Positions 2,705 through 26,708 of a stretch of DNA of 50,810 bases are shown in pieces (within the stretch, counting starts at the first letter, position 1; each line of letters opens with the position of its first letter). Source of the stretch: Phaeovulum sp. (lineage in GTDB: Bacteria; Pseudomonadota; Alphaproteobacteria; Rhodobacterales; Rhodobacteraceae). A program made the translations under genes and the position numbers. The DNA lies in contig NZ_JBFHIA010000001.1 of NCBI RefSeq assembly GCF_041596715.1, positions 1 to 50,810 on the forward strand, in the 5' to 3' direction. The notes beneath the pieces were generated by a model, which was given only the letters and a program-made list of their open reading frames with translations, searched no databases and was not told the DNA's origin.

Positions 2705-4210
2705 ATGTTCGAGAACCTATCTGAACGCCTTGGCGGCGTGTTCGACCGGCTGACAAAGCAGGGCGCGCTGAGCGAAGCCGATGTGGCCACCGCGCTGCGC
2801 GAAGTGCGGGTGGCGCTGCTGGAAGCAGACGTTTCGCTGCCAGTCGCGCGCGACTTTATCAAGGCGGTCGAGGCCAAGGCCAAGGGTCAGGCGGTTACGA
2901 AATCCATCACCCCCGGCCAGCAGGTCGTAAAGATCGTCCATGACGAACTGATCCGGGTGCTGGCAGGCGACGGCGCGCCCGATGCGCTGAAAATCGACAA
3001 CCCGCCCGCACCGATTCTGATGGTCGGCCTGCAAGGCTCTGGTAAAACCACCACCACCGCCAAGCTCGCCCGCCGCCTGAAGGAAAAGCAGGGCAAGCGT
3101 GTGCTGATGGCCTCGCTTGACGTGAACCGCCCGGCGGCCATGGAACAGCTGGCGATCCTTGGCACGCAGATCGGCGTCGATACGCTACCGATCGTGGCGG
3201 GGCAAAAGCCGGTCGATATTGCCAAACGCGCGCGCCAACAGGCAACGATGGGCGGCTACGACGTTTATCTGCTCGACACCGCTGGCCGCTTGCACATCGA
3301 CGATGTGCTGATGGCCGAAGTGCAAGCGGTGCGCGATGCCACGAACCCGCGCGAGACGCTGCTGGTGGTCGATGGTCTGACCGGGCAAGACGCGGTCAAC
3401 GTCGCAACCGAGTTCGAGGCCAAGGTCGGCATCACCGGCGTCGTGCTGACGCGGATGGATGGCGACGGGCGCGGTGGTGCCGCACTTTCGATGCGCGCCG
3501 TCACAGGCAAGCCGATCCGCTTTGTCGGCCTTGGCGAAAAGACCGACGCGCTAGAGACCTTTGAAGCCGACCGCATCGCGGGCCGTATTCTCGGCATGGG
3601 CGACATCGTGGCGCTGGTGGAAAAGGCGCAGGAAACGTTCGAAGCCGAGCAGGCCGAGCGGATGATGCGGCGCTTCCAGAAAGGTCTGTTCAACATGAAC
3701 GACCTGCGCGGCCAGCTAGAGCAGATGCTGAAGATGGGCGGGATGCAGGGTGTCATGGGGATGCTGCCGGGCATGGGCAAAATGGCCAAGGCCGCAGAAG
3801 CCGCCGGTTTCGACGACCGTATTCTGCGCCGCCAGATCGCGTTGATCGGGTCGATGACCAAAAAGGAACGTGCCAACCCCGATCTGCTGCAAGCCAGCCG
3901 CAAAAAGCGCATCGCGGCCGGTGCCGGGCTTGAAGTGGCCGAGTTGAACCGGCTTCTCAAGATGCATCGCCAGATGGCCGACACCATGAAGAAGATGGGC
4001 AAGGGCGGAATGCTCAAGCAGGCGATGAAGGGCATGATGGGCGGCAAGGGCGGTATGCCCGACCTGAAGAACATGGACCCCGCGCAACTGGAAGAAGCCG
4101 CGCGCGCAATGAAGGCCGCAGGCGGCATGGGTGGCGGCTTTCCCGGTGCGCCGGGCGGGATGAAGCTTCCGGGCGGGCTTTCAGGTCTGGGGCTTGGCCG
4201 CAAGAAATGA
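2705..4210 (+). CDS. ffh: Signal recognition particle protein Ffh
   Basis: MFENLSERLGGVFDRL N-terminus, GLQGSGKTTT P-loop, DTAGR, methionine-rich M domain at the C-terminus. GGAGGG lies 6 nt before the ATG at 2705; the track ORF starts upstream at TTG 2681. Confidence 0.95.
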   Translation: MFENLSERLGGVFDRLTKQGALSEADVATALREVRVALLEADVSLPVARDFIKAVEAKAKGQAVTKSITPGQQVVKIVHDELIRVLAGDGAPDALKIDNPPAPILMVGLQGSGKTTTTAKLARRLKEKQGKRVLMASLDVNRPAAMEQLAILGTQIGVDTLPIVAGQKPVDIAKRARQQATMGGYDVYLLDTAGRLHIDDVLMAEVQAVRDATNPRETLLVVDGLTGQDAVNVATEFEAKVGITGVVLTRMDGDGRGGAALSMRAVTGKPIRFVGLGEKTDALETFEADRIAGRILGMGDIVALVEKAQETFEAEQAERMMRRFQKGLFNMNDLRGQLEQMLKMGGMQGVMGMLPGMGKMAKAAEAAGFDDRILRRQIALIGSMTKKERANPDLLQASRKKRIAAGAGLEVAELNRLLKMHRQMADTMKKMGKGGMLKQAMKGMMGGKGGMPDLKNMDPAQLEEAARAMKAAGGMGGGFPGAPGGMKLPGGLSGLGLGRKK

Positions 4211-4722
4211 TCGCGCCCACGCTTCATACAGCGCGCTTGACGCTAGGCCCGGCCTCGGCCGCGCACGCAGAGGCTTTCATCGCCTTTTGCGCCAGCGATG
4301 CGTCACGCTTTTTGGGCGGGCCCGTTGGGCCACGCGATGCGTGGGAAGGTGTTGCGATCGTTGCAGGGCTTTGGACGCTTCGGGGATATGGTCCGTTTTG
4401 GATGACCGAATCCGCAACCGGCGCGCCGGTTGGTCGCGTTGGCATCTATTACCCGATCTGGCGCGACGAGCCGGAACTCGCGTGGCTGGTCTACCCCGCC
4501 TATCAACGGCAAGGTTTTGGCTATGAGGGCGCTGTTGCCGCGCGCGACTGGGCCTATGCAACGCTTGGCCTTGCGCCGCTGGTCAGCCTGATCGACCCAA
4601 AGAACACCGCCTCGATCCGCCTTGCCGAAAAACTGGGCGCGGTCTGTGAAGGCCCGCAAAACCCCGAGGACGCCGATTCCACCCTTTGCTGGCGCCACCC
4701 CGCGCAGGCGGTGGCGCAATGA
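4207..4722 (+). CDS. GNAT-family N-acetyltransferase (RimJ/RimL-like), paralogue 1
   Basis: LHTARLTLGP N-terminus and YQRQGFGYEGAVAARDWAY acetyl-CoA motif. Start overlaps the ffh stop (ATGA). Confidence 0.75.
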   Translation: MIAPTLHTARLTLGPASAAHAEAFIAFCASDASRFLGGPVGPRDAWEGVAIVAGLWTLRGYGPFWMTESATGAPVGRVGIYYPIWRDEPELAWLVYPAYQRQGFGYEGAVAARDWAYATLGLAPLVSLIDPKNTASIRLAEKLGAVCEGPQNPEDADSTLCWRHPAQAVAQ

Positions 4723-5249
4723 TCGCGTTGACCGGCACCCCGGTTTTGCAGACCGAGCGGCTGACGCTGCGCGCGCCCTGCCCGGCCGACTTCCCACAGT
4801 GGCTGGCGTATTTCGCCACCGCACGGTCAGAGTTTTCGGGCGGCCCGCTGACGGATGACCGGGCGTGGCGGGCGTTTTGCCACCACATCGGGCACTGGGT
4901 GATGCGTGGCTACGGCTCTTTCATCGTTACGCGTAAAGGCGTGGATAAAGCGATCGGCCTTATCGGCCCCTATCACCCGATCGACTGGCCCGAGGCCGAG
5001 CTTGGCTGGGCGCTCTGGGATGTCGCGGACGAGGGCAAGGGCCTTGCCTATGAGGCCGCCGCAGCCACCCGCGACCATGTGTTCCGCGATCTCGGCTGGT
5101 CCACCGCAGTCAGCTACATCGACCCGAACAACGCCCGCTCGGCCGCGCTGGCCAAGCGGCTGGGGGCAGTGCTGGACCCCGCCGCACGCGGGCCGCACCC
5201 CGACGATCTGGTGTTCCGTCATCCCGCGCCCGAGGGGAGTGCCGCATGA
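4719..5249 (+). CDS. GNAT-family N-acetyltransferase, paralogue 2
   Basis: MIALTGTPVLQTERLTLRAP..EGKGLAYEAAAATRDHVF. The ATG at 4719 overlaps the preceding stop (ATGA). Clear paralogue of the neighbouring genes. Confidence 0.75.
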   Translation: MIALTGTPVLQTERLTLRAPCPADFPQWLAYFATARSEFSGGPLTDDRAWRAFCHHIGHWVMRGYGSFIVTRKGVDKAIGLIGPYHPIDWPEAELGWALWDVADEGKGLAYEAAAATRDHVFRDLGWSTAVSYIDPNNARSAALAKRLGAVLDPAARGPHPDDLVFRHPAPEGSAA

Positions 5250-5776
5250 TCACGCTCACCGGAGCCCCGGTTCTGCACACCGCTCGCCTGACGCTGCGCG
5301 TTCCGGCGATGCGCGATTGGGAAGCGTTCGCCGCCTTTCTCACCTCGGATCGCGCGAGCTATGTCGGCGGCCCCGTCACGCGCGAGCGCGCATGGCGCGC
5401 CTTTGGCCACCTTGTCGGCCACTGGGTGCTGCGCGGCTACGGCATGTTCGCAGTAGCGCAAAAGGGCACGGATGAAGCCTTTGGCATGGCCGGCCCGTGG
5501 TTCCCCGAGAACTGGCCCGAGCAAGAGTTGGCCTGGAGCATTTGGTCCCCCGAGGCCGAAGGCAAGGGCTATGCATTCGAAGCTGCCCAAGCCGCACGCA
5601 ACTATGCTTTTGGCGTGCTCGGCTGGGCCACTGCTGTCAGCTACATTGACCCCGAAAATGCGCGCTCTATCGCGCTGGCTAAACGCCTTGATGCAGTGAT
5701 TGAACCCGGCGCGGCGCATCCCGGCGACGAGCCGACGCTGGTGTTTCGCCACTCAAGACCGGAGACCCTCGCATGA
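5246..5776 (+). CDS. GNAT-family N-acetyltransferase, paralogue 3
   Basis: MITLTGAPVLHTARLTLRVP..EGKGYAFEAAQAARNYAF. ATGA overlap with paralogue 2. Confidence 0.75.
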   Translation: MITLTGAPVLHTARLTLRVPAMRDWEAFAAFLTSDRASYVGGPVTRERAWRAFGHLVGHWVLRGYGMFAVAQKGTDEAFGMAGPWFPENWPEQELAWSIWSPEAEGKGYAFEAAQAARNYAFGVLGWATAVSYIDPENARSIALAKRLDAVIEPGAAHPGDEPTLVFRHSRPETLA

Positions 5777-20400: not shown

Positions 20401-20752
20401 CCAGCCGAATATCCGCCTTCTCGCGGAGCCACTTCGCACATTCCTTGGCGACCTGCGTCTGATTGAGCTGGTTCTTGAAGCGCAGCTCAAACTCGTCACC
20501 CGCTAGCGCCGTGAAGCGTGGCGTGCTTTCTGCATTATCCTGATCGGGACAGAGAAGGAGGCGCGCACCCTCGACGGACCGCAATTCCTTCTTGAGCGTT
20601 TCGAAGCCGTAGATGGAAAAGAGCGCCGATACGACGGAGAGCTTTGTGCCGTCCGTGAGGTATTTCCGCAACTCGTCGCCCACTTTCCCATTTTTCTTAT
20701 TATCCAGGATCATGGGTTTCCAACTTTTTCCCTGTTCCCTGGGCCTCGACAT
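17495..20752 (-). CDS. SNF2-family helicase with N-terminal PLD-like (apparently HKD-less) domain
   Basis: [75 protein letters not shown]. N-terminus [28 protein letters not shown] resembles PLD-type nuclease domains. An alternative start is at 20713. Confidence 0.88.
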   Translation of the reverse strand: [1085 protein letters not shown]

Positions 20753-20870
20753 AGCGGCGCATGAAGTCGCGGAGGACCTGCGCCGCAGGCTTATCCTCGG
20801 CGCGACAGGCCTGAAGGAAGCGCTCGCGCAGCTCCCGATCGATCCGAATTCGTAACCCAGCGTCTTTCAT
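20700..20870 (-). CDS. Ribbon-helix-helix (CopG/Arc-like) protein, candidate operon controller
   Basis: MKDAGLRIRIDRELRERFLQACRAEDKPAAQVLRDFMRRYV has a beta-strand/helix/helix pattern. Its 3' end overlaps the helicase start. Confidence 0.6.
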   Translation of the reverse strand: MKDAGLRIRIDRELRERFLQACRAEDKPAAQVLRDFMRRYVEAQGTGKKLETHDPG

Positions 20871-21183
20871 GGCGAGGAGTGTAGCCAATGGATACACCTC
20901 ATTCCAGCACAATCAACGGCGGTTGAGCTGCCTATGCCTGGTTCGTCCGGAGCCGTCCGTCGCCTTCACCAGCTGACGGGCGACGGCGGAGCCGGCGAAG
21001 CCAAGCCCATCCAGTTACTCCGCGCGAAGGATCGTCACCCGCTTGGGCCGAGACTCTGAAAAGCCCGGCGAGGCAGGCGCTCGGGACTTGGCCTAGAGCC
21101 TGACCCGCCGCTCTGCAGGCGGGGCGACCGATAGGAATACGTCCTCCTTGGCGCCCTAACCGACGATAGGCTATGTTCTATAT

Positions 21184-21501
21184 ATGTTCTCAAGCAATCG
21201 AACGGACAAAATCGCCTATTTCGGCGTCTGGGCCGATAGCGCCCGAGACCGCTCTTACCTGAAGGAGGCCCTGCGCATCTGCGGCGCAGCGGTCGAGCGT
21301 TGCGTCGAACAAGACCTGCGCACCTGCCAAGAGACTCAAGCCGCCCTGAACTGGCTGGCTGGGAACGGTCACAGGAGCGCCGTTGTCAAGTTCCGCCGCG
21401 CCCTTACGCTCCATAATCCTTTGGACAGAGAAGCGGCCGTCTCTCAGGCACTTGCTTATCTCGCCCGCCAAGCCTCTCGACAAAGCCGCCCAACCACATG
21501 A
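21184..21501 (+). CDS. Hypothetical protein
   Basis: 105-aa ORF with GC-rich third positions. No SD and no recognisable motif. Confidence 0.3.
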   Translation: MFSSNRTDKIAYFGVWADSARDRSYLKEALRICGAAVERCVEQDLRTCQETQAALNWLAGNGHRSAVVKFRRALTLHNPLDREAAVSQALAYLARQASRQSRPTT

Positions 21502-21506
21502 CCGTG

Positions 21507-21603
21507 ATACGCACTCGCGTATAGCATGCCTTTATACGCGCTCACGTATATTTTCGTTTCATACGCGAACACGTATATTGACCTTTAATACGCACTCGCG
21601 TAT
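21507..21603. promoter_or_regulatory. Four phased palindromic operators upstream of hipB
   Basis: ATACGC-N4-(G/A)CGTAT at 21507, 21534, 21561 and 21588, exactly 27 bp apart. Copies 1 and 4 are identical (ATACGCACTCGCGTAT). Confidence 0.75.
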
Positions 21604-21606
21604 ATT
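21578..21606 (+). promoter_or_regulatory. Sigma70-like hipBA promoter
   Basis: TTGACC (21578-21583), 17-nt spacer, TATATT (21601-21606). Operator 4 fills the spacer. Confidence 0.55.
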
Positions 21607-21624
21607 TGCATCATGGAGGCTGCC

Positions 21625-21879
21625 ATGACTGACCAGATTGCCCGCAACGAAAAACAGCTCGGCGCTATTCTGCGTCGTGCCCGCAAACAAGCCGGCTTTA
21701 CACAAGGCGCGCTCGGCGACCATATCCACCTGCGCCAAGGTACAGTCTCCCGCCTGGAGGCCGGGGAGCCCGCCGTCCAGCTGCGCACGCTGATGGCGGC
21801 CTTGTCCGCCCTCGACCTTGAACTCGTGGTCCGCAAGCGCAGCAAAACCAGCGCTGCCGACATCGAGGACATGTTCTGA
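21625..21879 (+). CDS. hipB: HipB-like XRE-family antitoxin
   Basis: HTH LRRARKQAGFTQGALGDHIHLRQGTVSRLEAG. GGAGG lies 5 nt before the ATG at 21625; the track ORF starts at 21613. Confidence 0.85.
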   Translation: MTDQIARNEKQLGAILRRARKQAGFTQGALGDHIHLRQGTVSRLEAGEPAVQLRTLMAALSALDLELVVRKRSKTSAADIEDMF

Positions 21880-23207
21880 TGGCACGCCGTCGGGCGCACG
21901 CGCCCCTCAATGTCTTCATGAACGGTCGCCTCGTGGGAACCCTACGCCGCGAATCCACCGGCGCGATCGACTTTCAATATGCACGCGAATGGCTTGCCTG
22001 GGAGAATACCTTTCCGGTTTCGCTCTCTCTGCCTTTGCGCGAAGATCGCTATATCGGCGCGCCCGTCATCAACGTCTTCGATAACCTCCTCCCGGATAGC
22101 GACGCTATCCGCAAGCGCGTCGCCGAACGCGTCGGCGCGGGCGGCACGGACGCCTACAGCTTGCTCACCGCTCTTGGTCATGACTGCGTCGGCGCGCTCC
22201 AGTTTCTCCCGGAAGGCATCAACCCCAGTAAGGCCGGCACAGCGGACGGCAAGCCCGTCTCCGACGACGAGATTGCCGCCATCATCAACAACCTCGTCAA
22301 CGCCCCTCTGGGGATGGGTGAGGATCAAGATTTTCGCATCTCGATTGCTGGCGCACAGGAAAAAACTGCCCTGCTGCGCAAGGACGGACAATGGTTCAAA
22401 CCTACAGGCACCACCGCCACCACCCATATCCTCAAGCCGCAGATCGGCCAGCTGCCGAACGGCATCGATCTCTCAAACAGCGTTGAGAACGAGTATCTTT
22501 GCCTGAAGCTGCTCGCCGCCCTCGGCATGCCGACCGCGCATACCGAGATTGCGGATTTTGGCAACCGCCGGACCCTCATCGTTGAACGCTTCGACCGCCG
22601 CTGGACGAATGACGGCCGCCTGCTGCGCCTGCCGCAGGAAGATATCTGCCAGGCTCTCTCCGTGCCGCCCACGCGCAAATACCAGTCCGATGGCGGACCG
22701 GGGATGCGTGACATCATCCAGCTCTTAAAGGGCAGCGACACACCGGACCAGGACATCGCCACCTTCATGCGTGCTTGTATTCTGTTCTGGATGCTGGGCG
22801 CCACTGATGGGCATGCGAAGAATTTCAGCATCACCCCGGGCCCTGGCGGACGCTTTCGCCTGACTCCTCTCTACGATGTTCTAACTGCACAACCGAGTCT
22901 CGACGCCGGCCAAATCCAGCAGAAGCAATTCAAGCTGGCCATGTCCGTCGGCAAGAACCGCCACTACCCCGTCGACAACATTGTGCCGCGTCATTTCATG
23001 CAAACAGCCGAGCTGGCGGGGGTCGGCTTACCGCTGATGCGAATGATCTTCGAAGACCTTGCCGCGAGCGCCGAAAAACAAACCGATGCCGTTTTAGACG
23101 CGCTGCCTACAGGGTTTCCCGATCAACTCGCTACGTCAGTCAGGGCAGCAGTCAAGAGCCGCACCCGACTTCTTGGCGATCTGTCTGAGGAGCCTGTAAA
23201 TGCATAA
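21879..23207 (+). CDS. hipA: HipA-family serine/threonine kinase toxin
   Basis: LNVFMNGRLVGTL, FDNLLPDS, ISIAGAQEKTAL, GATDGHAKNFSI catalytic loop, TPLYDVL. Start overlaps the hipB stop (TGATG). Confidence 0.93.
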   Translation: MARRRAHAPLNVFMNGRLVGTLRRESTGAIDFQYAREWLAWENTFPVSLSLPLREDRYIGAPVINVFDNLLPDSDAIRKRVAERVGAGGTDAYSLLTALGHDCVGALQFLPEGINPSKAGTADGKPVSDDEIAAIINNLVNAPLGMGEDQDFRISIAGAQEKTALLRKDGQWFKPTGTTATTHILKPQIGQLPNGIDLSNSVENEYLCLKLLAALGMPTAHTEIADFGNRRTLIVERFDRRWTNDGRLLRLPQEDICQALSVPPTRKYQSDGGPGMRDIIQLLKGSDTPDQDIATFMRACILFWMLGATDGHAKNFSITPGPGGRFRLTPLYDVLTAQPSLDAGQIQQKQFKLAMSVGKNRHYPVDNIVPRHFMQTAELAGVGLPLMRMIFEDLAASAEKQTDAVLDALPTGFPDQLATSVRAAVKSRTRLLGDLSEEPVNA

Positions 23208-23814
23208 TCCGGGACGCAGAATCGCTCTTCTCGGGTGGGGTTCGTTATTGTGGGACGAACGGCCCGATTTCGATGAATACCATGAGCCCTGGCAACTCGA
23301 CGGACCGGAGCTACCGCTGGAATTCAGCCGTGTCTCGTCCTCACGCAAAGGCGCGCTGACGCTCGTCGTCGACAATGTGAATGGCGCGCTTTGCCGCTGC
23401 GCCTACGCTCTTAGTAAACGCGGCGACCCCGTCGATGCCATTGCCGACTTACGCTCCCGGGAAGCGACTGTGATGCGGCACATGGGAATCTATTTCCGCG
23501 ACGGCACGCGGGAGGGAGAACCCGAGGTGCCAGCAACCATTCCGCCTTGGGCCAATCGGCTGGGTATTGACGTTGTGATTTGGACAGGCCTGCCCAGCAA
23601 CTTCGAGGAGGTGGTGGGAAGCCCATTCTCCGTCGAAAACGCAGTCCGGCATCTTAAAGAGCTGCCAGCCGAGACAATGACCGGCGCCGCGAAATATATC
23701 TGCCTGGCGCCGGCACTAGTAGACACGCCGCTGCGTCGCGCGCTCCAGGCCGAGTGGTGGTTCGTCAATCAATCCACCGCAGAGACCCCGGGCGCTCCTG
23801 TTCAAAGCGAATGA
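23200..23814 (+). CDS. ChaC/gamma-glutamylcyclotransferase-like protein, coupled to hipA
   Basis: IALLGWGSLLWDERPDF resembles the ChaC FGYGSLMWNP motif, and DLRSREAT resembles the ChaC LWxRE catalytic-Glu region. Start overlaps the hipA end by 8 nt. Confidence 0.55.
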   Translation: MHNPGRRIALLGWGSLLWDERPDFDEYHEPWQLDGPELPLEFSRVSSSRKGALTLVVDNVNGALCRCAYALSKRGDPVDAIADLRSREATVMRHMGIYFRDGTREGEPEVPATIPPWANRLGIDVVIWTGLPSNFEEVVGSPFSVENAVRHLKELPAETMTGAAKYICLAPALVDTPLRRALQAEWWFVNQSTAETPGAPVQSE

Positions 23815-23829
23815 GCAGAGAGACGTGCC

Positions 23830-24243
23830 TCATCGACCGAACCATCTGCCGATCTTCGTCGCAATAGCACCCACCATGCGGGCGAAGAAGCCCTGCGGCT
23901 GAGGGGCCATCGCCTCGACGTCACGTCGATCGCGAGATTTCACCGCCGCAATCCGCTCCGCCGACATTACTGCCGCCCACTGCACGCGGTTACCGCTGAT
24001 CCAATAGTGAGACCGGCAGGGAAAGCTCCAGCTGCCGACCGAAGGACTGAGGGATATGGCTCCGTCACTCTCAATAAGCCGCCACTTCGCAGGGTTCAGG
24101 GGCGTGACCACCTCCAGCCCACAGCCACAGCAGCACAGATGCGAGGCCGTCGAATATCGCTTAGAAATGTACAGGACGCCCGGCGCAAGATTTTCGGGAA
24201 TGAATTCTACAAATTCAGGTTTTATCTGGCCGAGCCGCGTCAT
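23830..24243 (-). CDS. Cys-rich small protein, DUF6527-like
   Basis: 137 aa with HLCCCGCGLEVV and FPCRSHYW Cys/His clusters. ATGA overlap with the E1 gene stop. Confidence 0.55.
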   Translation of the reverse strand: MTRLGQIKPEFVEFIPENLAPGVLYISKRYSTASHLCCCGCGLEVVTPLNPAKWRLIESDGAISLSPSVGSWSFPCRSHYWISGNRVQWAAVMSAERIAAVKSRDRRDVEAMAPQPQGFFARMVGAIATKIGRWFGR

Positions 24244-25415
24244 TTGCTGCCTTCATAAATTATACTGCCTGCAGCGATGCTGAACCCGGTGTAATGTTGT
24301 TCGCGCGTATCCTGATAGAAGCCAAACAGCTTTTTCCACTGGATGACCGCGATTGCCGCATTAAACGCGTTCAACTCGGCGATCTGGATGTTGCTGGCGT
24401 ACTCGTTCGCCCCACCATCCCCGTCCGCGTATGAGATATGCGGCGCCGCCTTCTCATGCGTCTTCGCTGTGCAAGTTGTCGCACGGACGATCCCGCCGAG
24501 CCGTCCTTCGACAAGCACGACGCCCATCCCTACCTCGACAAATGGAGTGTCGTTGGCAACGAGGCGTTCGACGATCTTCTCCTTGATCGGCCCGCGATCG
24601 GCGCAAAGGAAGATAAAGTCGAGGCCGTCCAGCAGGGGGAGGTTATCTTCATCCATATAGACGTCATGGGCGATAATGCCGTTCCGCATCTTCTCGTAGA
24701 TACCCCGGAAGTACGCGACCTTCGCAGGCTTGGTCGCTAGATCTTCCTGCCCCGGCGCGCCCGGGGATCGGAACGCGTTGTGTTGCGAGAAGACGTCGCC
24801 ATCGAATAGATGTAACTCCGCCACGGGCGTCTTGGCTACGAGGTCCAGGACATAGCTTCCAGTGCCACCAAGGCCGATGATTCCGATCTTCTGGCCGGCG
24901 ACCTTTTCGTTAACCGCACCGATGCCGGCCCGGCTCGTGGCCGTATCGACATACTTAAAGACCTCGCCGTCCCCGTCCGCGAGAATCGTTGGAAAGGTCT
25001 GCGCCGTGGCATTCGGATCAATCTTCGTCGCTTCGCCGGTGATGCGTCCGAGATAGGTAGTGATCTTATGGTGATAGTCGCGGTACTTCGCCTTGGCGGA
25101 AAAGGTGAAGTCGGCCTTAACGCCGCTGCCAAACTGCTGGGGTGCCGCGCCATTTTCGATGGACGCTATTTTCCGACCGTCGCTGTGGCACGGGTGTTCT
25201 CCAGTCCAGAACGCCCGGTGATCGCCGGGCGTTCTGGTGACGTCGTCGGACATTTCCAGGGTGGAGATAAGGATGCCGTCATAGCGGACGACAGCCTGGG
25301 ACGTGACATAGGGCACGTTACGAATGAGAAGGTATCCGCCCCAGATTTCGAGGTCGTAGCCTTCGTTCTGAAGGCGGAGCAAGTCCGCGCTACGAGCGAT
25401 TGGTCGGCGTGACAT
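24240..25415 (-). CDS. ThiF-family E1-like adenylyltransferase with a ~170-aa N-terminal extra domain
   Basis: KIGIIGLGGTGSYVLDLV Rossmann GxGxxG and DFIFLCADRGPIK. The N-terminal domain contains GEHPCHSDG. Confidence 0.85.
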   Translation of the reverse strand: MSRRPIARSADLLRLQNEGYDLEIWGGYLLIRNVPYVTSQAVVRYDGILISTLEMSDDVTRTPGDHRAFWTGEHPCHSDGRKIASIENGAAPQQFGSGVKADFTFSAKAKYRDYHHKITTYLGRITGEATKIDPNATAQTFPTILADGDGEVFKYVDTATSRAGIGAVNEKVAGQKIGIIGLGGTGSYVLDLVAKTPVAELHLFDGDVFSQHNAFRSPGAPGQEDLATKPAKVAYFRGIYEKMRNGIIAHDVYMDEDNLPLLDGLDFIFLCADRGPIKEKIVERLVANDTPFVEVGMGVVLVEGRLGGIVRATTCTAKTHEKAAPHISYADGDGGANEYASNIQIAELNAFNAAIAVIQWKKLFGFYQDTREQHYTGFSIAAGSIIYEGSK

Positions 25416-25668
25416 CGAACTCCATGCCCTCCTTGGCCTTTACGGATTGGCCCTCGACAAGAGAACCGGCCGGTTTATTGTCATTGCCGCGCGTGTACTG
25501 GATGGTGAACTGCACGCCGTCGCCGTTGGGCGGGTTTTCGAAAGCAAGCGCGATGACTTCCGCGAAGGTCAGGTCGTCGTTCTTGGGAACCGTCTTCTCG
25601 CGCCCGTTCACGACGATCGTCACGGTCTTCGGTTCGGGCTTGGGGTGTTCTTCAGGCTTGGCCATCAT
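25390..25668 (-). CDS. Ubiquitin-like beta-grasp protein (single multiubiquitin-type domain)
   Basis: TVTIVVNGREKTVPKNDDLTFAEVIALAF..GSLVEGQSVKAKEGMEFDV. AAGGA lies 5 nt before the ATG at 25668. The longer track ORF runs into the divergent promoter. Confidence 0.6.
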   Translation of the reverse strand: MMAKPEEHPKPEPKTVTIVVNGREKTVPKNDDLTFAEVIALAFENPPNGDGVQFTIQYTRGNDNKPAGSLVEGQSVKAKEGMEFDVTPTNRS

Positions 25669-25703
25669 TGATCCTTTCTGGCTAGAGCGCCGGTTGAGAG
25701 GCC

Positions 25704-25777
25704 GATTGCGAATCTGCAACTGGTTTGATAATATCAAGAGACCAAGTGAATTGCAAGTTCGCAATTGATTGCGAACT
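25704..25777. promoter_or_regulatory. Divergent overlapping promoters and palindromic operators between the Ubl operon and the XRE gene
   Basis: Plus strand: TTGCGA (25706) -17- TAATAT (25729). Minus strand: TTGCAA (25751-25756) -17- TATTAT (25733-25728). Palindromes: TTGATAATATCAA at 25725-25737 and AGTTCGCAAT-TG-ATTGCGAACT at 25756-25777. Confidence 0.5.
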
Positions 25778-25792
25778 CTCAACGGAGGGGAC

Positions 25793-26137
25793 ATGACCGA
25801 CAGGTTCGACAACGAGGCTTTTTTTGCGGCCCTTAACGCCGCGCGACTCAGCCGTCAGAAAACGTGGAAGGAGGTGGCGGCCGAAGCTGGCATTAATGCA
25901 TCCACCCTGACCCGCATGAGTCAGGGTGCTAAGCCAGATGTGAACGGGCTCGCGGCGCTTTTGGCGTGGTCGCATCTAAAGGCCGAGATGTTTATCAGGG
26001 GCACCGACGCGACCGAATCTGAGCCCATCGCCAGGATTACAGCGCTACTACGTGCCGACCCCAAACTAACTTCTGACAAAGCCAAGCTTATGGAAGATAT
26101 TGTCGTTAGCACTTACAACAGACTGAAGGATAGCTGA
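25793..26137 (+). CDS. XRE-family HTH regulator (CapH-like position)
   Basis: RLSRQKTWKEVAAEAGINASTLTRMSQGAKP HTH. GGAGGGG lies just before the ATG at 25793. Confidence 0.8.
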   Translation: MTDRFDNEAFFAALNAARLSRQKTWKEVAAEAGINASTLTRMSQGAKPDVNGLAALLAWSHLKAEMFIRGTDATESEPIARITALLRADPKLTSDKAKLMEDIVVSTYNRLKDS

Positions 26138-26138
26138 A

Positions 26139-26708
26139 TTGGGGTTTCGGCGGGGGTTCAAGGCGGAAGCAAACCGCATCGCACTGCGAGTTCGTCAACA
26201 GATGGACTTGGCGGCACATGCGCCGATTGATCCCGCCGCTGTCTGCGCTCATTTCGAGATAGAGCTAATCGACCTGAGCGAACTGGAACCCGACAGCCCT
26301 TTTCTTGGTAAGCATCAAGATGCCTTCTCCGCGGTCACCGTGCCGCGCGGCCTTGCCACTGCGATCGTCCATAATGACCGCCATCACCCGTACCGGCAGC
26401 GCAGCAACATCTGCCACGAGCTGGCCCATTGCTTTCTGGGCCATGAATATGCGGCCCCTCTTCTCGAGAACGGTGACCGCTCGCGCGATAGTGGCATCGA
26501 GGCGGAGGCAAATTTCCTTGCAGGGGTGTTGCTGATTACCAATGAAGCCGCCAATAAGATCATGCTCGATGGCCTGTATCATCAGGCCCAAAACCTCTAT
26601 GGAGTTAGCAAGCCGATGCTGGATTTCCGCTTGCGTGTGAGCGGCGCACAAACAATCCACCAGCGTCGCATGGGCAGTGCTCGGAGATCGTCACACGTGG
26701 GGTCCTGA
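26139..26708 (+). CDS. ImmA/IrrE-family zinc metallopeptidase (CapP-like position)
   Basis: HELAHCFLGH HEXXH motif. TTG start 2 nt after the XRE stop. Confidence 0.8.
   Translation: MGFRRGFKAEANRIALRVRQQMDLAAHAPIDPAAVCAHFEIELIDLSELEPDSPFLGKHQDAFSAVTVPRGLATAIVHNDRHHPYRQRSNICHELAHCFLGHEYAAPLLENGDRSRDSGIEAEANFLAGVLLITNEAANKIMLDGLYHQAQNLYGVSKPMLDFRLRVSGAQTIHQRRMGSARRSSHVGS

Follow-up and report, generated by a model that had tools for sequence, protein, structure and literature searches.

A 50,810-nucleotide stretch of the genome of Phaeovulum sp. (Rhodobacteraceae; NCBI RefSeq assembly GCF_041596715.1, contig NZ_JBFHIA010000001.1, positions 1 to 50,810; hereafter the window) carries a hipBA toxin-antitoxin module that is followed by a third gene, encoding a protein of 204 amino acids. 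According to the open reading frame (ORF) list of the window, hipB, hipA and the third gene are three overlapping ORFs on the + strand, the overlaps being 1 and 8 nucleotides long. The features of this unit are the following.

21507-21606, + strand: hipBA control region, four palindromes and a sigma-70-like promoter (repeat finder, promoter scan)
21625-21879, + strand: hipB, 84 amino acids, XRE-type helix-turn-helix (HTH) antitoxin and repressor (Pfam and NCBIfam), with GGAGG 6 nucleotides upstream
21879-23207, + strand: hipA, 442 amino acids, full-length HipA Ser/Thr kinase toxin (Pfam, alignment with 2wiu)
23200-23814, + strand: third cistron, 204 amino acids, divergent protein of the predicted GGCT/ChaC fold (Foldseek, hhalign, motif alignment)

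The earlier note on this DNA had described a three-gene unit joined by TGATG and by an 8-nucleotide overlap, and both the ORFs and the junctions are confirmed. The hipB stop and the hipA start share TGATG, and the ATG of the third gene lies 8 nucleotides ahead of the hipA stop (junction GTAAATGCATAA), with a Shine-Dalgarno sequence (GAGGAG) 6 nucleotides upstream of it. A longer hipB could begin at an in-frame ATG at 21613; in the relatives, hipB is called at 84 amino acids, matching the start at 21625. The promoter scan found no promoter-like site in the interval between hipA and the third gene, nor is there a convincing terminator in that interval; the sole + strand terminator-like match (23222-23238) lies inside the third ORF, and such matches occur at chance level (4 found, 3.4 expected). 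No compositional break was detected between hipA and the third gene, and Rfam gave no match in 20500-26000. The same layout, with hipB of 84 and hipA of 442 amino acids and a third gene joined by an 8-nucleotide ATGnnTGA or ATGnnTAA overlap, was found in at least nine other contigs of differing contexts, and this recurrence indicates that the genes are not juxtaposed by chance.

HipB matches the Pfam families HTH_31 (E 7e-10) and HTH_3, and it matches the NCBIfam models couple_hipB and HipB below their cut-offs. HipA contains the domains Couple_hipA (E 2e-26) and HipA_C (E 2e-52), and its residues 11-437 align with residues 5-435 of E. coli HipA (2wiu; E 3e-99), with the loop of the Ser150 region (RISIAGAQEK), DGHAKN and the Mg-binding LYD all retained. 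Judged from its sequence, the hipBA part belongs to the canonical long-HipA hipBA toxin-antitoxin class: HipA has both the coupling domain at its N-terminus and the kinase domain at its C-terminus, the HTH antitoxin gene overlaps hipA, and an operator array precedes the pair. The resemblance to hipBA of E. coli K-12 includes the hipB-hipA order with a stop-start overlap, the XRE HTH antitoxin and four operator palindromes across the promoter. The two HipA proteins are ~50% identical over their full length, with the P-loop/Ser150 region, DGHAKN and YD kept; the window differs from E. coli K-12 in its operator sequence, TATACGC-N4-GCGTATA, and in having a translationally coupled third cistron after hipA. 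The HipBST systems of E. coli O127 and Legionella are also three-gene hip operons, in which the kinase is split and HipS, the counterpart of the N-terminal subdomain of HipA, is the antitoxin (PMC8262856, PMC10627512). In contrast, HipA in the window is whole, as the earlier note had recognized (442 amino acids with both domains), and the extra gene is downstream, unrelated to HipA, dispensable and predicted to have a GGCT fold that is not HipS-like.

In the control region, four 16-nucleotide palindromes (ATACGC-N4-GCGTAT) start at 21507, 21534, 21561 and 21588, with a spacing of 27 nucleotides, and the last two are overlapped by a sigma-70-like promoter (TTGACC-17-TATATT, 21578-21606). We predict these palindromes to be HipB operators, by their likeness to the four operators of E. 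coli hipBA. Four such palindromes are also found at matching distances from hipB in 10 of the 11 cassettes compared (the window and ten relatives, some with the third gene and some lacking it); the exception, L199, has three, when three mismatches are allowed.

Fold and motifs of the third protein

The third protein has no match in Pfam (E ≤ 0.1), NCBIfam or PADLOC. A PDB search with its sequence gave one non-significant match (E 0.86), and a PDB profile search gave none. The AlphaFold2 model, built on an alignment of 25 sequences, has a pLDDT of 89 and a pTM of 0.84. With this model, the fold search proposed by the earlier note was carried out: in the Foldseek comparison with the PDB, ranks 1-8 are all proteins of the gamma-glutamylcyclotransferase (GGCT) fold, namely ChaC2, GGACT and GGCT. 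The best match is human ChaC2 (E 1.4e-3, probability 0.98, TM-score 0.43-0.47), and ranks 5-8 are the weaker matches to GGCT and GGACT/AIG2-like proteins (PDB 2rbh, 1vkb; E 0.3-0.6), which share the fold class and give no signal at the sequence level. Among the viral models in BFVD, the top match and two others of the top 15 are also GGCT/AIG2-like. Profile-profile alignment agrees with these results. The hhalign comparison of the third-protein family with 11 bona fide ChaC sequences, taken from related genomes, gave P 5e-5, and the comparison of ChaC with a family profile of 92 sequences gave P 2.3e-6 (probability 89%), against P 0.13 for a control comparison with an unrelated family.

The alignment with the ChaC profile spans residues 6-92 of the third protein and pairs four motifs with those of ChaC: GWGSLLW with FGYGSLMW, LTLVVD with LVLGLD, C..AYA with C.GiA, and DLRSRE with YLRKRE. 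The predicted substrate loop would be G12-W-G-S-L-L-W18, and the putative catalytic Glu would be E88 in D83-L-R-S-R-E88; when a ChaC protein is aligned to the ChaC2 structures, E88 corresponds to E83 of human ChaC2, the residue mutated in 6ky1. Both IALLGWGSLLWD and DLRSRE are present in the window copy and are invariant or almost so across the family. Among 25 sequences from several phyla that are 50-73% identical to the third protein, 47 positions are invariant, including G12-W-G-S-L16, W18, E41-F-S-R44, L53-T-L55, D58, D83-L-R85, R87 and T90. The C-terminal half has invariant motifs of its own (WTGLxSNF, AAxY..AP and TPLR), which have no ChaC alignment.

ChaC, ChaC1 and ChaC2 (PDB 6ky1, 6k95, 5hwi) are the closest known proteins. 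They are the best structural matches and share with the third protein the YGSL-type loop, the 'LTLVxD' and 'C..AYA' strands and the 'LRxRE' Glu, whereas the third protein has no ChaC Pfam match, has Trp in place of the loop Tyr and cannot be aligned in its C-terminal half. Membership in the ChaC family proper (PF04752) was rejected: a PF04752 search of the genome found two other genes, both ordinary ChaC genes located elsewhere, and did not find the third gene. The ChaC-like character that the earlier note had read from two motifs is borne out at the level of the superfamily, since the two motifs fall on the YGSL loop and the catalytic Glu of ChaC; the protein lies outside the ChaC family as Pfam defines it. 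The predicted fold, the YGSL-type N-terminal loop and the catalytic Glu are those of the GGCT superfamily, and the modest but consistent evidence of Foldseek, profile-profile and motif alignments points to a divergent member of the GGCT/ChaC-fold superfamily. Within that superfamily, the third gene represents a new branch without a name.

Linkage to hipBA, loss and exchange

Six of the seven relatives that were looked up (61-73% identity) lie behind an 84-amino-acid HipB and a 442-amino-acid HipA with the same 8-nucleotide ATGnnTGA overlap, and one is unlinked. The contexts of the linked relatives comprise an island with Bub and relaxase genes like that of the window, an island with Type I restriction-modification (RM) and UvrD/HNH genes, a prophage-like region, and AAA_21 or PLD/MZB neighbours. 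Over 10 linked operons, the pairwise identities of HipA and of the third protein are correlated (r = 0.73). Both genes are under purifying selection (dN/dS 0.08-0.21, with 0.10-0.21 for the linked third-gene copies). In the family tree, all linked copies fall inside one 13-member alphaproteobacterial clade, where the two genes are inherited together. The addition of the third gene to hipBA is probably ancient within one alphaproteobacterial lineage. It should be noted that several of the linked operons are on metagenome contigs, in which frameshifts could be assembly errors.

Beyond this subclade, linkage is rare. Among 80 species-level loci in a genome survey, with genes called by a length-based heuristic, hipBA lies upstream of the family member at three and a relic of it at one. 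The survey of hipA neighbourhoods that the earlier note had called for therefore cuts both ways: family-wide, rare linkage is what the note had held would refute it, and in the window copy's own subclade the linkage holds.

We also surveyed the locus from the side of HipA, in a clade made up of 28 close relatives of HipA. Of these, 4 have an intact third gene, 1 (L014) has one with an in-frame stop, 3 (L093, L098 and L107) keep a truncated or deleted relic and ~17 have none. The intact, broken and missing states are scattered over the HipA tree, which fits an ancestral three-gene cassette with repeated loss. In Paramesorhizobium deserti (L014:5001-5546), a stop codon is located at the invariant Trp31 with hipBA intact, a natural knockout in an isolate genome; this case, like the deletions in L093 and L107, is more reliable than the metagenome cases. 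The reverse is found in Tabrizicola (L001), where the third gene is intact and hipA is cut to its last 38 codons (4892-5005). L001 is the only case of a hipA-tail relic upstream of an unlinked family member, and ~70 other species-level family loci have no hipA.

An obligate three-component toxin-antitoxin system was rejected on these grounds, given the broken or missing third genes beside intact hipBA and the third gene without hipA in L001. The natural knockouts in both directions exclude both an obligate second antitoxin and a HipB-dependent toxin; they fit an auxiliary co-effector and a passenger alike, and hence do not separate those two. On the distribution of its sequences, the third gene is a facultative add-on that is sufficient by itself; it is no antitoxin, and it is not obligatory as a partner.

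The 3′ end of hipA is also a place where sequences change abruptly. L018 and L003 have HipA proteins that are 91% identical, and their hipBA regions share 85-98% nucleotide identity from -315 to ~+1185, whereas identity drops near hipA codon 400 to ~0.6 in the third gene, which is only 58% identical. The junction in L018 is TGATG, unlike the 8-nucleotide overlap. The last ~40 codons of hipA vary with the downstream content, and a sharp boundary is also seen between L084 and L082. From these alignments, the 3′ end of hipA looks like a recombination junction. In 20 related genomes there is no close orthologue of the window hipA, and this, together with the island surroundings, marks the cassette as acquired DNA.

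The wider family and neighbouring genes

The third protein has more than 1,200 close homologues, every one labelled 'hypothetical', and a profile search (E ≤ 1e-3) extends the family to 2,232 representatives clustered at 50% identity. Its distribution is patchy across phyla, and it is present in 9 of the 301 genomes that were sampled evenly from the class. With 6 relatives in 2.9 million viral contigs, the family is nearly missing from viruses, and on this count the reading as mainly a phage gene was rejected. A single conserved partner of the family was also rejected: neighbour clustering and Pfam/PADLOC tallies show 73 upstream Pfam families, each in at most 3 of 74 loci, and the largest neighbour cluster covers 10 of the 80 loci, all in one subclade. 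That cluster is a membrane-anchored protein of ~193 amino acids with a C-terminal transmembrane segment and without a family match.

L051-L054, L059, L068, L069, L071, L073, L078: ~193-amino-acid protein upstream of the family member, overlapping or with a spacing of 2 nucleotides, a constant feature of one subclade

In protein P0172 the ~193-amino-acid protein is fused to a family member. Another subclade (L025, L032, L033, L037) has an LRAT/NlpC-like protein of 135-141 amino acids upstream, with a 21-nucleotide gap, an NCENF motif and a C-terminal hydrophobic tail. Other tightly coupled partners are Sel1 with a trypsin-like peptidase, an AAA_21/SMC-like ATPase, an Eco57I-type methylase, a gamma-glutamyltranspeptidase and a TPR protein. 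The gamma-glutamyltranspeptidase gene (L026:2997-4946) is 36 nucleotides upstream of the family member; such a gene is also nearby in four related metagenome-assembled genomes (L062, L069, L071, L078), ~2.8 kb downstream. This adjacency is the sole contextual hint to gamma-glutamyl metabolism. At L066, a ribbon-helix-helix antitoxin gene (89 amino acids, 4327-4596) overlaps a Doc/Fic toxin gene (127 amino acids, 4593-4976) by 4 nucleotides, and a family member (4992-5648) follows Doc after a 15-nucleotide gap. This phd-doc operon resembles the window in the order of antitoxin, toxin and ChaC-like family member and differs in the toxin family; it is an independent instance of that order, at a single locus. 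Just upstream of it, on the opposite strand (3595-4262), lies an HTH and LRAT/NlpC-like pair.

Family members are found fused to HNH, DUF429, membrane domains and uncharacterised helical domains. Several of the fused extra domains contain Rx4-6H motifs and have no detectable mutual homology; the best match to an Apea-like HEPN profile has an E of 0.006. QatABCD, Shedu, RM, Gabija-like and DRT genes are found in the neighbourhoods of the family. In Agrobacterium and further Hyphomicrobiales (L173-L175:6001-7397), a family member and the TatD gene of a QatABCD operon run towards each other and overlap by 4 nucleotides, and in Mesorhizobium (L176) another member comes after a Shedu SduA gene. L190-L194, from two ~2.5 Mb genomes of the same class (G080 and G251), carry divergent paralogues in tandem arrays, with a Sec-type signal peptide and a ~60-residue insert, some of them fused to a C-terminal region of ~380 amino acids; these paralogues may be secreted versions. 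In its patchy occurrence and neighbourhoods as sampled here, the family has the profile of a horizontally mobile defence-island gene.

Many of the operons with hipBA and the ChaC-like gene contain a fourth cistron, which encodes ~300 amino acids, overlaps the third gene by 4 nucleotides and has a C-terminal KRSKLVH (Rx4H). Its positions are as follows.

L196:5558-6499, L199:5591-6493, L207:2835-3740, L084:4912-5820, L001:5558-6496: fourth cistron
L203:4603-5313: fourth cistron, truncated
L003:5483-6274: fourth cistron, frameshifted

A homologue of this cistron is named 'Apea-like HEPN domain-containing protein' in UniRef, and the gene family is also solitary elsewhere. The window, L195 and L205 have no fourth cistron. 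In L196 and L207, the HEPN-like gene is followed by overlapping genes for a UvrD-like helicase (898-976 amino acids) and an HNH protein of ~310 amino acids (L196:6496-10594, L207:3737-6838), making a six-gene string, possibly a larger defence operon, that opens with hipBA.

On the two sides of the window's unit lie the following features.

21184-21501, + strand: orf105, 105 amino acids, ending 6 nucleotides before the first operator, without a Pfam match
23830-26708: convergent BubE(DUF6527)-E1(DUF6791-ThiF)-multi-ubiquitin operon with a divergent HTH and M78 peptidase pair, beginning 15 nucleotides past the third gene

Copies of orf105 that are 79-81% identical are likewise located upstream of hipB in L082 and L084, and genes of 105 amino acids are also called before hipB in L196, L197, L207 and L208. 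The gene is not kept at the cassettes L199 and L203. It possibly belongs to the mobile cassette. The third gene was rejected as a part of the Bub operon, since no homologue of BubE, E1 or the multi-ubiquitin protein was found near the gene in 160 genome and metagenome loci; the other co-occurrence with Bub is in L195 alone, in the same island as the window.

A possible role for the third cistron

We propose, at about an even chance, that the locus is a hipBA module with a co-regulated auxiliary enzyme, encoded by a translationally coupled and dispensable cistron of the GGCT fold. One promoter under four HipB operators would drive all three genes, which are probably co-transcribed, and the 8-nucleotide overlap and the internal Shine-Dalgarno sequence would tie synthesis of the enzyme to the translation of HipA. 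Under HipB repression little enzyme would be present, and upon derepression it would be made together with HipA. HipA would halt translation through phosphorylation of an aminoacyl-tRNA synthetase, which by homology would be GltX, the target of E. coli HipA. In parallel, the enzyme would presumably cleave a gamma-glutamyl amide, with cyclisation of its glutamyl part to 5-oxoproline. By default, from the example of ChaC, the substrate may be guessed to be glutathione; the GGCT fold, in GGACT, can also act on gamma-glutamyl-amines. The enzyme would be an auxiliary arm of the cassette that may act in synergy with HipA, rather than an antitoxin of HipA or a toxin that requires HipB. The earlier note had found it suggestive that a gamma-glutamyl-directed enzyme should be located next to a kinase of GltX. 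We found no support for this link, which is chemically loose: GltX esterifies the alpha-carboxyl group. The note's wider suggestion of a second effector or a modulator may still be right.

Several observations weigh against the proposal of an auxiliary enzyme. The likeness of the fold is modest, with TM-scores below 0.5 to the solved GGCT-fold structures, and only the N-terminal ~90 residues align with ChaC by profile. E88 is kept in at least 90% of the family alignment and is replaced by Asp in one relative, the linked copy L003, and codon 89 of the window copy (23464-23466), beside the putative catalytic Glu, encodes Ala where at least 90% of the relatives have Gly. The sequence was found in DNA metagenome runs only. 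As the L003/L018 mosaic makes plain, the history of the third gene can be separate from that of hipBA. Repeated loss of the third gene is equally expected of a functionally unrelated passenger, and the extra operon cargo in the relatives suggests that the 3′ end of hipBA is merely a landing site.

These last points could be explained by a pure passenger, an independent accessory or defence-island gene that was caught at the 3′ end of hipBA, owes its stability or just its transcription to hipBA and has no functional interplay with HipA or HipB. Frequent loss of the gene and the further independent cargo on the same operon in the relatives favour this explanation. The family is overwhelmingly unlinked to hipA, with its many upstream partners each found at few loci, and its members occur beside QatABCD, Shedu, RM and Gabija-like genes. 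The third gene has been lost or broken repeatedly with hipBA persisting, and it survives the deletion of hipA. Unrelated cargo trails it in the relatives, of which the Apea-like HEPN gene is solitary elsewhere, and there is a mosaic breakpoint near hipA codon 400. However, the start-stop overlap is kept down to ~58-61% identity of the third protein, along with the co-divergence, no promoter of its own was detected for the third gene, and there is an independent antitoxin-toxin-ChaC-like order with Doc. The long-kept overlap, the co-divergence of the two genes and the parallel Doc operon favour a functional link, and we consider a pure passenger rather unlikely, while still the chief rival to an auxiliary enzyme.

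It is also conceivable that the third protein binds HipA or the HipB-HipA complex and tunes the kinase or the stability of HipB, as a HipS-like modulator or second antitoxin for which the GGCT fold is a scaffold. Translational coupling would give stoichiometric co-production with HipA, and the family behaves like a promiscuous partner domain, adjoining or fused to HipA, Doc, LRAT/NlpC-like, HNH and DUF429 proteins. Yet hipBA is intact without the third gene in most close relatives, and also beside broken copies of it, so that the third protein is not needed to neutralise HipA; moreover, HipA is full-length and HipB is present. The conservation of the third protein, with the 47 invariant positions including the catalytic motifs, is enzyme-like, whereas antitoxins usually evolve fast. 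Such a modulator is accordingly improbable. Still less probable, in our judgement, is a decaying or inactive copy, in which the third gene of the window is on the way out and has ceased to encode an active enzyme. Seen from the side of HipA, half of the linked copies are broken; the window copy is the longest terminal branch of its clade (0.32 versus 0.12), has the Gly89Ala change beside the putative catalytic Glu and is not followed by the fourth cistron of its relatives. Against decay, the ORF keeps its full length and every one of the 47 invariant residues, with W13, S15, E41, R44, R85, R87 and E88 all present, dN/dS relative to L084 is 0.12, and the Shine-Dalgarno sequence and the overlap are intact.

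As the textbook module of persistence, hipBA has known variants that either split the kinase or alter the antitoxin. Our full-text literature searches returned neither a hip operon described with a third gene of this kind nor GGCT-like enzymes described in toxin-antitoxin or defence contexts, and the text of the Gerdes survey of Hip kinase gene organisations makes no mention of such a third gene. A recurrent and co-diverging hipBA cassette with an enzyme cistron under predicted HipB control is thus undescribed in the literature searched. Joint action of the enzyme and HipA, if it occurs, would tie the activation of a toxin-antitoxin module to gamma-glutamyl or glutathione metabolism. A broader idea, which we offer as speculative and doubtful, is that the ChaC-like family is a general, horizontally mobile conflict-system enzyme that depletes glutathione, or some other metabolite or signal of gamma-glutamyl type, and has been repeatedly recruited as a co-effector or partner of toxins. 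If this were true, the recruiting partners would include HipA, Doc, HEPN-like domains, HNH, the LRAT/NlpC-like protein, proteases and membrane proteins; derepression of hipBA would arrest translation and at the same time cause a collapse of redox balance or of metabolism, a bacterial parallel to the way in which uncharged-tRNA stress leads to CHAC1 in eukaryotes. For the family itself, the finding means that a large group without a name or model (~2,200 clusters), horizontally spread and present in defence islands, now has a predicted GGCT fold and a testable hypothesis for its catalytic residues.

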